From a bacterium (GTDB taxonomy: Bacteria; Patescibacteriota; Dojkabacteria; JAKAPS01; JAJZLI01): a DNA stretch of 64,000 nt. Location: positions 326,087-390,086 of the forward strand of contig JAKAWT010000001.1 of the NCBI GenBank assembly GCA_021816845.1, in the 5' to 3' direction. Positions 1,106-55,909 of the stretch are shown in pieces. Every line of letters begins with the position of its first letter. Positions within the stretch are counted from its first letter, which is position 1. The notes beneath the pieces were generated by a model. That model had not been told where the DNA came from, searched no databases, and worked only from the letters and a program-made list of their open reading frames with translations. A program made the translations under genes and the position numbers.

Positions 1106-3388
1106 TTATACTTTAAGATTCTTTATTATGGTCTTTTGAGACTGGTCTTTCGGAAATTCCTCATACATTATACTTATTTCCTCTGTTTTGATTAAACCCT
1201 TATCTTTTAATGTTTGGAATAGTGCTTCTGTTATAAAAGGAATAAATGGGTGCATAAGCTTTACAAGAGTGTAGAATGTGTGTACAAGCTCTGCATTAGA
1301 TTCTATGTTGTCATTTTTGGGATTCTTCATATCTTCAAGATAAGAGTCACAGAATGTATGATGATAAAAATTCTGAAGATTAAATGCAGCTAGGCCAAAT
1401 TCAAAGTTTTCAATATTCCTATTTACTATTCTTATAAGATCTTGGATCTCTTGGGTGATATGGATATTGGTTTTTGCTGCATAAACACCAGTATTCTCCC
1501 TTATAAACTTTTTATCATCCTCAGACAAATTTTCCATTTTTAAAAATATAAACCTTGAAGAGTTATACACTTTGTTTATAAAATTCCTAAAACCTTTTAC
1601 TTTCTCATCATACAGTTTCATATCCTGGTCTGGGGCAACACCAGAGACTAAGGATAATCTTAGAGAGTCAGTACCGAATCTGTCAATCATCTCCATTGGG
1701 CTTACTCCATTGCCCTTAGATTTTGATTGTTTAAGTCCATCCTTGTCTAGAACTAGACCATGGAGATATACATCAAAAAATGGTACCTTAGAGGTCCTAT
1801 AAAGGCCCATCATAACCATCCTTGCTACCCAGAAAAATAGTATGTCTCTCCCCGTCTCAAGGACATTAGTTGGATAGAAAGTTTTAAAATCTTTTGATTC
1901 TGTCCCTCCAAGTGTTGTGTATGGCCACTGTGTAGATGAAAACCATGTATCAAAAATGTCTTCTTCTTCTACTAGATTAGTATTGTTGCATTTAGGGCAT
2001 TTCTTTGGTTTATCTATTGATACAATAATCTCTCCACAGCCATTGGATCTTGATCCTGTGGATCCAGATCCCGTGGATCCAGATCCAATTATCTCTTTTA
2101 AATCTCCGTTCTCGTCTATCTCCGTCCTTTTCCCTCCACAATAGTATACAGGTATCCTTTGTCCCCACCAAAGTTGTCTTGAAATACACCAATCTTCTAT
2201 GTTTTCTAGCCATCTAAGATAATTTTTTTCTTGTCTTTGAGGATGAATATGAAGATCTCCTTTCTCAATAGCTAAAATTGCTTCTTTTGCTAAACCTCTT
2301 GTTTTCATAAACCATTGGTAAGAAAGTAATGGTTCTATTACAGTATGGCTTCTTTCACATATCTGAATCTTATGCTTTATATCCTCAATTTTTACAATTA
2401 GACCTAGAGCTTCAAGATCTGATACTACAGCTTCTCTTGCATCCTTAACCTTCATACCTTTGTATCTACCATATGTCAATTTTGAATAGTTATCAATTAT
2501 TGATATACGAGGTAAATTGTGGCGTTCTCCAATTTCAAAATCTTCCTTTGAATGTCCTGGAGTCACCTTTAAAATTCCCGTTCCAAAATTTTCATCGACT
2601 GCAAAATCTTCTATAACAGGTAACTCTTTCTCTCCGTCTATTGATTTTACTAGGATTGTTTTACCAATAAGATGCTTATATCTTTTATCTTTTGGGTTAA
2701 CAGCTAAAGCGGTATCAGCCATTATAGTCTCAGGTCTTGTTGTTGCAACAACTAAATCTCCGTATTTTATATAGTATAATTTTGTATCTTCCTCTATATA
2801 TTCAGTGTCAATATCAGCTAAGGCTGTTTGACATTTAGAACACCAATTTATTATTCGTTTTCCTCTGTATACAAGACCTTCTTTAAACATTGCTATAAAG
2901 GTTTCTTGAACTTGCCTCGTGATGTTTTCATCAAGACTAAACTTTTCTCTACTGTAGTCTGCACTAAGACCTATTCTTTGCTCTTGTGCTGTTGCGTTTT
3001 TTGCGTTTTTGAGTGTGAATTCTAAACATTGTTTTACAAATTCTTCTCTACCTATATCTCTCTTACTTCTTCCAGATCCTTTTAGAAGTTCTTTCTCGAA
3101 AACAATTTCTGTTTGTATACCAGCATGGTCCTTCCCAGGTAGAAGTAAAACTTTATCTTGTAACATTCTGTGATATCTACCCATTATATCTTGGTATGTA
3201 TTCCCAGTAACATGACCTGTATGTAAAGGTGCATTTGCATTAGGAGGTGGAAGAATAATAGTAAAAGTCCTAGTATTTTTTGGATATTTTCTATATTCTG
3301 GAGAGAATAAGTTGTTTGATAACCAGAATTCTATGATACTCTCTTCGTATTTTTTTGGATTGTATGAAACATCTTTTATATCTAACAT
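1106..3388 (-). CDS. valS: valyl-tRNA synthetase
   Basis: It has the class I aaRS HIGH motif (PLHTGHVTGN) and a KMSKS variant (KQSKSKGN), and overall ValRS-like length and architecture. It carries an in-frame GSGSTGSGSTGSRS insertion encoded by the palindromic mini-repeat at 2045-2086. Confidence 0.9.
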   Translation of the reverse strand: MLDIKDVSYNPKKYEESIIEFWLSNNLFSPEYRKYPKNTRTFTIILPPPNANAPLHTGHVTGNTYQDIMGRYHRMLQDKVLLLPGKDHAGIQTEIVFEKELLKGSGRSKRDIGREEFVKQCLEFTLKNAKNATAQEQRIGLSADYSREKFSLDENITRQVQETFIAMFKEGLVYRGKRIINWCSKCQTALADIDTEYIEEDTKLYYIKYGDLVVATTRPETIMADTALAVNPKDKRYKHLIGKTILVKSIDGEKELPVIEDFAVDENFGTGILKVTPGHSKEDFEIGERHNLPRISIIDNYSKLTYGRYKGMKVKDAREAVVSDLEALGLIVKIEDIKHKIQICERSHTVIEPLLSYQWFMKTRGLAKEAILAIEKGDLHIHPQRQEKNYLRWLENIEDWCISRQLWWGQRIPVYYCGGKRTEIDENGDLKEIIGSGSTGSGSTGSRSNGCGEIIVSIDKPKKCPKCNNTNLVEEEDIFDTWFSSTQWPYTTLGGTESKDFKTFYPTNVLETGRDILFFWVARMVMMGLYRTSKVPFFDVYLHGLVLDKDGLKQSKSKGNGVSPMEMIDRFGTDSLRLSLVSGVAPDQDMKLYDEKVKGFRNFINKVYNSSRFIFLKMENLSEDDKKFIRENTGVYAAKTNIHITQEIQDLIRIVNRNIENFEFGLAAFNLQNFYHHTFCDSYLEDMKNPKNDNIESNAELVHTFYTLVKLMHPFIPFITEALFQTLKDKGLIKTEEISIMYEEFPKDQSQKTIIKNLKV
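2045..2086. repeat. 15-nt-periodic palindromic mini-repeat: three 12-nt palindromes GGATCttGATCC, GGATCcaGATCC, GGATCcaGATCC separated by 3-nt spacers, in frame inside valS
   Basis: Read directly from the sequence. On the minus strand it encodes GSGSTGSGSTGS in ValRS. Confidence 0.85.
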
Positions 3389-3402
3389 ATCTTTTGAATT
3401 TA

Positions 3403-3435
3403 GATTCTTGAATCTTGATTCTTGGATCTTGATCC
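3403..3435. repeat. degenerate copy of the same palindromic mini-repeat family (GATTCttGAATC ... GGATCttGATCC), intergenic, just upstream of the valS start
   Basis: Read directly from the sequence. Confidence 0.7.
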
Positions 3436-54374: not shown

Positions 54375-55133
54375 TTAAAGAATACCCCACTTTAGAAGAT
54401 ATTGTAGATAACCTTTATATAGAAGGATCTTTCTTCTGACTCCTAATTTTTTTGTACTTTCTCCATATAGATGTAGTACTTTTGCTGTATTAAGATAATA
54501 TGTCTTTATATTATTTTTTTTCATTTTTCTAAAGAAGTCTACATCATTAAAATATAGGGGGAATCGTTCATCAAATAACCCATATTGTGCTATAACGGAG
54601 GATCTTATAAGTATACAAGTAGCTTGTGGTTGATCAACTTCTCTTGAGTCCCTATGATCCCAATTTTTAAGTTTATAATCATTAAAAAGAATATTATAAA
54701 AAGATGGGAATTTTCTACATGATTTTTGGATGGAGTGATCTTTATTTATAAGTTGAGGTGCTACAATTTGGTAATTTCTCTTTGGATTAAGATCCTTTGG
54801 ATCAAGATCCTTTGGGTCAAGACACTCATCAAGGAAATTTACTAATTTTTCTATTGCATGATCTATAATTTCTGTATCAGAGCCAAGTAGCATAATGTAT
54901 TCTCCTCTGGCTTTTTTAACCCCTTGATTCATCGCCTTTGCAAAATATATATTCTGATCATTTTTGATAAATTTTATATGTGGATCTTCTAGATAAGAAC
55001 TTTTTAAGTCTGAGTTGTTGTCAATTAGTATAATCTCATATAGGAAAGGTAGCCCTTTTATACTTTTTATTAGATTTAAAACTGTATCTTTTGTATTCCA
55101 GTTTACTATAATTATGGAGAGTTTTATCTTCAT
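54375..55133 (-). CDS. glycosyltransferase family 2
   Basis: The LSIIIVNWNTKDTVLNLIKSI...LIDNNSD segment is the signature. An in-frame mini-repeat encodes KDLDPKDLDPKDLNPK. Confidence 0.7.
   Translation of the reverse strand: MKIKLSIIIVNWNTKDTVLNLIKSIKGLPFLYEIILIDNNSDLKSSYLEDPHIKFIKNDQNIYFAKAMNQGVKKARGEYIMLLGSDTEIIDHAIEKLVNFLDECLDPKDLDPKDLNPKRNYQIVAPQLINKDHSIQKSCRKFPSFYNILFNDYKLKNWDHRDSREVDQPQATCILIRSSVIAQYGLFDERFPLYFNDVDFFRKMKKNNIKTYYLNTAKVLHLYGESTKKLGVRRKILLYKGYLQYLLKWGIL
54784..54825. repeat. palindromic mini-repeat (GGATTaaGATCC ttt GGATCaaGATCC ttt GGGTCaaGACAC) in frame inside the GT2 gene
   Basis: Read directly from the sequence. Confidence 0.85.
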
Positions 55134-55909
55134 TAGTTATATTTTTCTTTTATTTTCCTTAGGGATACCAAGTATTCAAATATATCAGAGAATCTAAGCT
55201 TTGAAACTCCGAATTTACGATCTCTAAATTTTATTGGTATTTCTTTGACTTTTCTATTTTTTTTGTAGAAAAAATATAGTATTTCAACCTGAAATAGATA
55301 TCCATTTGATCTGATATTTTTAATAAATTTTTTAGGAAGGATTTCCGATTTTATAAGCTTAAATCCTGATGTACAATCATGGTAAGGCATTCTTAACATA
55401 ATTTTTGTAAAAATATTTCCAAATTTTGAATTCATACGTCGGAGTAATCCCCATTCAGTCTCTATAGATCCTCCCTTAATGTACCTAGATCCAACAATGA
55501 TGTCATATTTATCCTTATATTTAATCAGTTCTAGGATATACTTTGGATCATGAGATAGGTCTGCATCCATTTGTATTATATATTTTGCTCCCATATTAAA
55601 TATTGCATACAAAAATCCTCTTTTATATGCATCTCCAAGACCTTTTTTTTGTCCTTTTATTAGGTATATTTTTTTATTCCTCTTCATTAAAGATTCTATA
55701 TATTCTCCTGTTTTATCAGGTGAATTATCATCAACAAAAAGGATTCTTATTCCTGGAGTAAACGTATATATTCTCTTTACTAAATTTGGGATATTTAACC
55801 TCTCATTATAAGTGGGAATGATTATTACTATATCTTTATAACTTTTAGAGCCAGCTTTCTTGGAGCCAACTCCATTAGGTTTAGACCCTTTGGATTTAGA
55901 ATTTTTCAT
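55133..55909 (-). CDS. GT2 polyprenol-phosphate mannose/glucose synthase-like (Dpm1/GtrB-like)
   Basis: The IVIIIPTYNERLNIPNLVKRI...LFVDDNSPDKT...DADLSHDP segment is the signature. The N-terminal tail (KGSKPNGVGSKKAGSKS) is encoded by a degenerate 15-nt periodic repeat at 55862-55903. Confidence 0.75.
   Translation of the reverse strand: MKNSKSKGSKPNGVGSKKAGSKSYKDIVIIIPTYNERLNIPNLVKRIYTFTPGIRILFVDDNSPDKTGEYIESLMKRNKKIYLIKGQKKGLGDAYKRGFLYAIFNMGAKYIIQMDADLSHDPKYILELIKYKDKYDIIVGSRYIKGGSIETEWGLLRRMNSKFGNIFTKIMLRMPYHDCTSGFKLIKSEILPKKFIKNIRSNGYLFQVEILYFFYKKNRKVKEIPIKFRDRKFGVSKLRFSDIFEYLVSLRKIKEKYN
55862..55903. repeat. degenerate copy of the 15-nt periodic palindromic repeat (GGAGCcaaCTCC att AGGTTtaGACCC ttt GGATTtaGAATT)
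   Basis: Read directly from the sequence. Confidence 0.5.

Follow-up and report, generated by a model that had tools for sequence, protein, structure and literature searches.

An ultra-short palindromic repeat family, probably invasive, in genes and spacers of one Patescibacteria lineage

A 64,000-nucleotide stretch of contig JAKAWT010000001.1 (assembly GCA_021816845.1, positions 326,087 to 390,086; hereafter the window), from a member of the patescibacterial Dojkabacteria, carries within its genes and between them GGATCnnGATCC, a 12-base palindrome whose units are separated by spacers of 2-3 bases. This palindrome family is real, strongly non-random and recently active in one Patescibacteria lineage. 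Close relatives have gained new copies of the 12-mer de novo at sites that differ from one relative to the next, and the family acts at the level of DNA, not as a protein-level linker. We consider it probable that these are lineage-restricted, ultra-short invasive DNA repeats, which would be born as perfect palindromes, expand in tandem and decay, with selection for in-frame hydrophilic loops.

Each unit is built of two 5-bp arms, canonically GGATC/GATCC, around a 2-bp centre that is free to vary, and the spacer between units is 2 bp long in non-coding DNA (period 14) and 3 bp long in genes (period 15). The canonical arm has a GC content of 60%, against a window average of ~30%. An enrichment over composition, presupposed by the sequence-only reading in which the repeat was first noticed, was borne out when tested: GGATCNNGATCC has eight exact matches in the window where dinucleotide-preserving shuffles predict 0.03, and 41 matches at no more than two mismatches where 13.2 are expected. 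Chains of at least two near-palindromic 12-mers spaced by 13-16 nt number 18, compared with 4.3 in Markov-3 controls, and among palindromes of 5+2+5 architecture the class with GC-rich arms is in excess, the GGATCNNGATCC motif being dominant. The half-sites GGATC and GATCC are ~3-fold over-represented. About 16 loci of the window hold one to four units each, in arrays of 14-56 nt; 11 of the 16 lie inside open reading frames (ORFs), two thirds of the copies being intragenic, and five arrays fall within the 9.6% of non-coding DNA in a window that is ~90% coding. In 146 kb of sequence, exact copies of GGATCNNGATCC total 35, at dozens of unrelated sites.

Copies as derived insertions in one clade

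The window was compared with a strain 99% identical to it (L003), two relatives whose valS is 83-84% identical (L001, L002), three whose GT2 glycosyltransferase gene is about 75-80% identical and which are syntenic with window 47-62 kb (L111, L112, L113), seven contigs of the relative DAHXLB01, and the outgroups L115 and L116 (valS 65%) and L117 (52%); the clade sequence examined amounts to ~210 kb. In valS (1106-3388, minus strand), three independent insert sites were found among the relatives, each absent from the outgroups. The window array (2045-2086; three units, period 15, encoding GSGSTGSGSTGSRS at residues 435-448) occupies site C, which also holds three units in L003 and is empty in L001, L002 and every outgroup. 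Site B is empty in the window and carries one unit in L002 (GGATCTGGATCC TAT) and three in L001, while site A is unoccupied in L002 and has a unit of 15 nt in L001. The GT2 gene at 54375-55133 (minus strand) likewise has three insert sites across the window, L112 and L113. The array of the window (54784-54825; three units, period 15, encoding LDPKDLDPKDLNP) is a 14-codon insert missing in 11 homologs, those at ~80% identity included; L112 has one unit at a different site, AAA[GGATCTAGATCC]AAA where the empty site reads AAA, and in L113 a third site bears a short insert.

The same pattern was found in genes unrelated to these. The S8 protease array (16065-16100, in gene 14133-16349, minus strand; ~3 units, period 15, encoding GSTGSGSSGSGL) is a 15-residue gap in the ortholog of outgroup L116, and the array of the DUF87/HerA-type ATPase (50402-50443; a 45-nt insert of three decaying units, LGSGSSETSYVETNS) is an exact 15-codon gap in L112, with CTT on both flanks. 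The N-terminal array of the Replic_Relax gene (51971-52012; three units of the variant GGGACTGGTCCC, period 15, GLVPRGLVPMGLAP) matches a 15-codon gap in L112, and the array at the N-terminus of a second GT2 (55862-55903; three decayed units, period 15, NSKSKGSKPNGVGS) an 8-codon gap in L112 and L113. At two further sites L112 has an insert of different length: it is longer by 45 nt (GGATCAAGATCC AGC GGATCAAAATCC AGC GGATCAAAATCC CAG) at a second, short and decayed Replic_Relax array (52216-52240, VGSGRSGSK), and at the array of the YfhO-like membrane protein (48939-48980; ~3 units, period 15, DSQDQDPGDQ) it has a single unit (GGATCTAGGTCC) and is 6 residues shorter. Non-coding spacers differ in the same way. 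The spacer between the ABC2_membrane and ABC_tran genes, with two units of the variant AACTCTGGAGTT at period 14 (8197-8230), measures 37 nt in the window and 3-4 nt in outgroups L115 and L116, and the groES-groEL spacer, with three decayed units at periods 15 and 14 (62085-62126), measures 76 nt compared with 22 nt in outgroup L117. Because the outgroups are without inserts, the inserts are gains and not losses.

These comparisons upheld the view of the sequence-only reading that lineage-specific, in-frame insertions have entered unrelated genes: outgroup orthologs are without them, and the inserts of the relatives consist of the same nucleotides at different sites. As in Rickettsia, unrelated conserved ORFs (valS, GT2, S8, DUF87 ATPase, Replic_Relax) have taken up in-frame palindromic insertions that orthologs do not have. 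Eight ortholog pairs of the window and L112 (68-93% protein identity) contain nine internal indels of 4 residues or more, and seven of these are the palindrome element, mostly as 15 or 45 nt; judged from these alignments, the element lies behind most protein-length differences between close relatives. At the array that overlaps the BacA stop codon (4474-4527; gene 4520-5353, minus strand; four units, period 14), the 99%-identical strain diverges from the window exactly at the first unit, immediately after GAGTCTAG, and continues in a different segment of 316 nt; its arrays are otherwise identical to those of the window. The exchange, whose left breakpoint is the one at the palindrome unit, replaces window 4354-4519 (166 nt, most of the 14-nt array among them) with L003 8720-9035; a 92-residue ORF encoded there gave no significant match in Pfam.

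On the evidence of the outgroup loci and of a scan of species genomes, the family does not extend beyond a single clade of Patescibacteria at genus level. Carrier loci that were fetched through homologs, not through the pattern, contain 18 exact units in 107 kb; the three outgroups, which share synteny and have similar GC content, contain no unit at one mismatch or fewer in 66.6 kb, and their half-site counts are much nearer expectation. A scan for two tandem units in one genome for each of 185,579 species returned 41 stretches, seven of them in the single genome DAHXLB01 (GC ~30%), the relative of the window already named; the other genomes have one stretch each and are mostly of high GC content. 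None of 66 stretches from a metagenome scan, nor the one from a viral scan, came from the carrier clade, and the low-GC matches were (GGATCC)n hexamer repeats of other organisms. One metagenome sequence, L091 (Ga0082207_1023396, 1865 nt, GC 0.41), has seven clusters of GGATCC/GGATTC-type repeats in less than 2 kb; these look like hexamer (GS/DP) repeats belonging to an unrelated organism and not like the 12+3 element. A full-text literature search returned nothing comparable described for Patescibacteria.

In DAHXLB01 (L011 300-400, compared with window 20190-20215), the ortholog of ORF 20119-20715 has a two-unit insert, GSRSIGSRS, with an imperfect direct repeat of 12 nt on its two sides (CCTTGTTTCCTT / CCTTGTTTTTTA), such that PCFL is encoded twice; it is the only long flank duplication among the sites compared. 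Toxin-antitoxin pairs (PIN, MazE, PhdYeFM) lie in the relatives between genes that are adjacent in the window (L111/L112 10935-11644 and 16526-17568; L115 5123-5784 and 14594-15221) and are a second source of local gene-order variation in the clade. Gene content between the aminotransferase and MurJ also differs from the window in L111 and L112.

Reading frames, palindromy and array dynamics

In coding copies a single 12-mer is translated in each of three frames and from either strand, giving GSxS peptides in 13 cases, DxDP in seven and IxI in three. The same DNA motif encodes peptides as unrelated as GSGS(T), D(L/Q)DP(K/G) and GLVP(R/M), and is present in non-coding DNA as well. Inside arrays the serine codon TCC makes up 9 of 25 serine codons (36%), compared with 7% outside. 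The sequence-only reading had likewise proposed a family defined at the level of DNA. Its claim of an exact 15-nt period holds inside genes and fails at the intergenic arrays 3396-3435, 4474-4527 and 8197-8230, which have a 2-nt spacer and a period of 14; in a tally of arrays, all 20 coding arrays have a period of 15 and eight of the ten non-coding arrays a period of 14. It was also mistaken in holding every frame of the palindrome to be free of stop codons, as GGA TCT TGA TCC and GG ATC TAG ATC C both contain stops. Since the palindrome can form stops, the centre dinucleotide that is seen depends on the frame in use.

All coding copies in the window are translated through, in frame, and the hydrophilic frames prevail (13 + 7, compared with 3 in the Ile-rich frame). 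In an AlphaFold2 model of the GT2 (mean pLDDT 94), the insert is the sole low-confidence stretch and is modelled as coil connecting helix 93-103 to strand 121-129, and the valS insert lies within a lineage-variable segment where the alignment to T. thermophilus ValRS (1GAX) breaks. The coding copies that survive have a length that is a multiple of three, a stop-free centre, a hydrophilic Gly/Ser or Asp/Pro/Lys frame, and a position in a variable surface loop. Read-through results from selection on frame, on the centre dinucleotide and on unit length, 15 nt in genes and 14 nt outside them.

Units with variant arms have remained palindromic through changes on both sides (GGGCC/GGCCC, GGGAC/GTCCC, GGAGC/GCTCC, GGGTC/GACCC, GCATC/GATGC, AACTC/GAGTT). 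The GT4 array (43096-43125; two units, GGGTCTGGATCC and GGGCCTAGGCCC, period 15, KGLGPKDPDP) has two such compensatory arm changes in its second unit. In a set of 53 distinct units, pair cells with a change on each of the two sides number 30, compared with 6.4 +/- 2.1 in shuffles, none of 500 of which reached 30, and the pairing collapses once partners are slid. Differences per site within arrays rise from 0.14 in arms to 0.26 in centres and 0.42 in spacers. Perfect arrays, which are lineage-specific, fold as single-stranded DNA into long hairpins of -12.6 to -17.5 kcal/mol (z -3.7 to -5.9; for the valS array -13.7 kcal/mol, z -4.7), whereas degenerate arrays (second GT2, groES-groEL, YfhO) fold no better than shuffles. 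This difference between perfect and degenerate arrays indicates that arrays are born as perfect palindromes and then decay without compensation.

Orthologous sites can hold different numbers of units, as at valS site B, Replic_Relax residue 96 and YfhO, and array-specific arm variants recur in tandem, from which it follows that arrays grow and shrink in place. Direct matches between spacers and flanks within arrays number 14, compared with 4.1 expected (p = 1e-4), and identical 3-nt flanks were found at 7 of 39 sites, where ~1 is expected; the repeats are 2 or 3 nt long, and most sites are without one. The identity of flanks and spacers is compatible with tandem duplication, with short duplications of the target or with copying primed on microhomology, and the 5-bp arms might be regarded as terminal inverted repeats. 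A fold-back origin of arrays, suggested by the seemingly reverse-complementary flanks of several GS-type arrays (ATT...AAT, CAC...GTG), was tried and rejected (4 matches compared with 2.8 expected, permutation p = 0.30).

Dispersal, rival explanations and known systems

The reading that we favour can be set out as a sequence of steps. New copies of the 12-mer appear at fresh sites, arrays gain or lose units in place and decay through point mutation, and the coding copies that survive selection are those that are in frame, stop-free and hydrophilic; the repeat itself would behave as selfish or neutral DNA. Perfect arrays may form long hairpins or cruciforms, in which intrastrand template switching (quasi-palindrome correction) would restore palindromy after arm mutations; such switching would yield compensatory arm variants and arms more uniform than centres and spacers. 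For dispersal, existing copies would act as templates that are copied in the course of repair or replication, with priming on microhomologies of 2-3 nt that would show as short direct repeats at the flanks. This route of dispersal is possible, and we tentatively prefer it to a dedicated enzyme.

Several observations weigh against this reading or parts of it. The covariation and arm-versus-spacer statistics rest on units that were partly selected for palindromy. GS-frame arrays combine identical palindromes with unrelated spacers (AAT/GGG/GTT in L001), which neither simple slippage nor a fixed target-site duplication predicts, and the reading does not account for the uniform 14-nt period of the non-coding arrays. 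The 51 ORFs of the window gave no Pfam match to a transposase, RAYT, reverse transcriptase, restriction enzyme or DNA methyltransferase. Non-coding copies within operons may, moreover, have a function.

The strongest competitor of microhomology-primed copying is mobilisation in trans, by a dedicated enzyme whose gene would lie elsewhere in the carrier genomes. Candidates are a hairpin-recognising HUH/Y1 transposase (as in REP/RAYT and IS200/IS605), a MITE-like transposase generating 2-3-bp target duplications, or a reverse transcriptase (as proposed for MUSE1). The sharp restriction to one clade and the absence from syntenic outgroups of equal GC content are as expected after the gain of such an agent, the unit geometry is defined (12 + 2 in non-coding arrays), short direct repeats are enriched at flanks, as in the AAA-flanked unit of the L112 GT2, and compensatory changes preserve the palindrome, as expected if a hairpin is recognised. 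However, no such gene was found in the window or in the fetched loci of the relatives, whose gene tables list no RAYT; most sites are without flank repeats, and those present differ in length and sequence; the spacers of GS-type arrays are mutually unrelated; and 12 bp is far below any known transposase substrate. We regard a trans-acting enzyme as unlikely, though it would make the repeat the smallest non-autonomous mobile element known in bacteria. We give as little credence to the broader proposition that the 12-bp palindrome is the substrate of a clade-specific nuclease or transposase, of restriction-modification, or of an uptake or self-marking system; if this were so, no smaller repeat would be known to be actively mobilised or put to functional use in a bacterial chromosome, and the palindrome would continue to supply the essential proteins of an ultra-small symbiont with new surface loops.

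Less probable again is the proposal that arrays are functional cis-elements kept for their density, whether as binding or methylation sites (GATC/GGATC), as uptake or self-recognition signals, or as operon hairpins of the REP/BIME type. Non-coding copies do lie in short co-directional spacers (BacA-orf-valS, ABC2-ABC_tran, groES-groEL), arms are conserved relative to centres and spacers, and half-sites are in excess. Against these points, array positions differ even between relatives of ~80% identity, old arrays decay uncompensated with loss of the folding signal, and uptake sequences (USS/DUS), which are dispersed single motifs recognised by the competence machinery, normally arise by substitution, whereas the motifs here are tandem insertions. 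The link to methylation or restriction suggested by the sequence-only reading found no support: the window is without a methyltransferase or restriction enzyme for such a system, variant units are without GATC, and GATC is not avoided, its count of 236 in the window, with 173 expected, being unremarkable as a sign of restriction-modification. A terminator or promoter role was rejected after a consensus scan of window 1-20 kb, which gave no enrichment and flagged no array, as was membership of a known RNA family, Rfam being silent at the arrays and matching only a SAM riboswitch elsewhere in the window.

Ordinary micro- or minisatellites, in which chance palindromes would slip locally with no dispersal between loci, would account for the varying copy number at orthologous sites, the tandem duplication of array-specific variants and the identical spacers of many arrays. 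As the sole explanation, slippage is contradicted by the recurrence of the same 12-mer at dozens of unrelated sites, by empty alleles without a proto-repeat, by single-unit insertions, by outgroups of equal composition that have no units, and by the unrelated spacers of some young arrays; we consider it very improbable. Protein-level selection for flexible Gly-Ser or Asp-Pro linkers, with nucleotide likeness arising from codon bias, agrees with inserts that are hydrophilic, flexible and located in loops, but is refuted by the frame, strand and non-coding data, with next to no probability left to it: three frames and both strands give unrelated peptides, non-coding copies keep the motif at period 14, the rare TCC codon is enriched five-fold, and inserts vary among orthologs with no conservation. 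An assembly or library artefact (linker or adaptor contamination), brought to mind by GGATCC being a BamHI site frequent in synthetic linkers, is the least probable explanation of all and is refuted by arrays that are in frame, at orthologous or different sites and at all stages of decay in seven independent assemblies (ENA ERZ27237490, GCA_021805885.1, GCA_021809565.1, GCA_054637875.1, DAHXLB01, JGI 3300061658 and JGI 3300045129).

Among known systems, the likeness to Rickettsia palindromic elements (RPEs), reportedly described by Ogata et al. in 2000, was aptly drawn by the sequence-only reading, much shorter unit included. Both are palindromic repeats that proliferate in one bacterial lineage, add in-frame surface peptides to conserved genes and are also present in non-coding DNA; RPEs are single elements of ~100-150 bp, whereas the repeat described here has 12 bp plus 2-3 bp in tandems of one to four units, is unrelated in sequence, and is hosted by Patescibacteria instead of Rickettsiales. 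The REP sequences of enterobacteria are 20-40 nt long, strictly extragenic and associated with RAYTs (Y1 HUH transposases). The short clustered palindromes, alternating arm orientation, short linkers and location in co-directional gene spacers resemble REP/BIME, from which the 12-nt unit and its mostly intragenic position set the family apart; no RAYT was found in the window ORFs or the fetched loci. MITEs, with terminal inverted repeats inside a target-site duplication of fixed length, derive from an autonomous element and measure tens to hundreds of bp, compared with 12 bp here; no parent element was found in the window ORFs. Micro- and minisatellites share the change of copy number in place, but copies here do not have a local origin. 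PARCELs are palindromic coding repeats of 75 nt (25 residues) in dedicated surface proteins, with horizontal transfer of whole ORFs (PMC2996958); tandem coding repeats, DNA dyad symmetry and a patchy distribution are common to both, but the inserts described here are of 15 nt and spread across housekeeping enzymes.

The closest analogues in behaviour are organellar. The GC clusters of yeast mitochondria, as summarised in PMC4478555 with reference to Weiller et al. 1989, have putative target duplications, occur singly and in tandem arrays, and have conserved stems, those of GC42 being far more conserved than its loops (PMC4478555). They share with the present family a GC-richer palindrome in an AT-rich genome, presence/absence polymorphism, short putative target duplications, single and tandem copies, and stem conservation. 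The likeness is one of analogy, with no homology and with a different size and host: GC clusters span tens of bp (e.g. GC42) and are mostly non-coding and mitochondrial, whereas the present repeat has 12 bp and lies mainly in genes of a bacterial chromosome. MUSE1 of Podospora, an 11-bp "mitochondrial ultra-short element" (Koll et al. 1996; summarised in PMC1864894, PMC2670323 and PMC7218506), is by these citing accounts likewise an invasive repeat of about a dozen bp, with many copies, found at recombination junctions, much as the replacement in L003 begins at a unit; it differs in being mitochondrial and in the proposed mobilisation by a group II intron reverse transcriptase. By analogy, the parallel with fungal mitochondria suggests a general process in small, AT-rich, repair-poor genomes.

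If the family is invasive, 12-15 bp are enough for a repeat to invade a bacterial chromosome. In this lineage of Patescibacteria, of genus level, the repeat is the main source of protein insertions, those in an aminoacyl-tRNA synthetase included. Selfish DNA in coding genes, a phenomenon of Rickettsia, would thereby be known from a unit of much smaller size and from the Candidate Phyla Radiation (CPR). With a period of 14 nt outside genes and of 15 nt inside them, the arrays offer a clean, natural read-out of selection on mutational input. In practice, the inserts disrupt hidden Markov model and domain alignments, and they are usable as fast strain-typing markers.

Remaining arrays and other features of the window

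All 13 loci listed by the sequence-only reading contain the quoted repeats, in host genes as named according to Pfam (51 window ORFs), and several details needed amendment. The intergenic locus at 18554-18572, taken for a tandem array at 18556-18572, is one degenerate unit (AGATCCTGATTC); the arrays at 52216-52240, 55862-55903 and 62085-62126 are present in decayed form; and the ATPase array, placed at 50402-50428, extends through a third decayed unit to 50443. The list had missed the two AACTCTGGAGTT units at 8197-8230, an array at 21466-21494 in ORF 20782-21639 (two units of the variant GCATCTTGATGC, period 15, VHQDAMHQDA), and a single exact unit, GGATCGAGATCC, in the S8 protease (16215-16226, peptide GSRS). 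Just 5' of the valS start codon, the non-coding array at 3396-3435 has three units at period 14 with TT spacers.

The best matches of the window ValRS are Patescibacteria/CPR sequences; an exact look-up of this protein returned no record, and a variant 99% identical to it was found. Besides valS, the window encodes ribosomal protein L25, BacA, many glycosyltransferases, a YfhO-like protein, MurJ and groES/EL, together with the S8 protease, a GH18 hydrolase, the DUF87 ATPase, Replic_Relax and metK; RCC1-like repeats are present in both the protease and the hydrolase. The intergenic DNA from which a GT2 gene and the ABC-2 permease gene diverge contains, at 7244-7283, a perfect 15-nt tandem repeat (ATCAAGATATGCAAT x 2.7, 100% match). 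Every unit of it holds a 10-nt palindrome, TATCAAGATA, whose core, ATCAAGAT, is identical to the central part of GGATCAAGATCC; this repeat may have diverged from the palindrome family, or may be an operator or iteron. A glycosyltransferase/methyltransferase/UDP-galactopyranose mutase island at ~21800-38900 has the lowest GC content of the window (23-24%), and the 17.6 kb at 21.5-39.1 kb contain no palindrome unit where the density elsewhere in the window leads to an estimate of ~7. This stretch may fit a build-up of repeats with residence time, or the island may be a recent arrival.

Within the GH18 protein, 16519-16887 is a tandem repeat of 132 nt (about 2-2.4 copies, 74-82% match) that corresponds to RCC1-like beta-propeller repeats, also found in the adjacent S8 protease. 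CpG-containing tetramers are strongly depleted in the window: GCGC occurs 0 times and CGCG twice (~30 expected each), and TCGA 32 times compared with 173 expected. The SAM riboswitch (Rfam RF00162, 51.2 bits) lies at 57359-57459 on the plus strand, directly 5' of metK (57522-58679).

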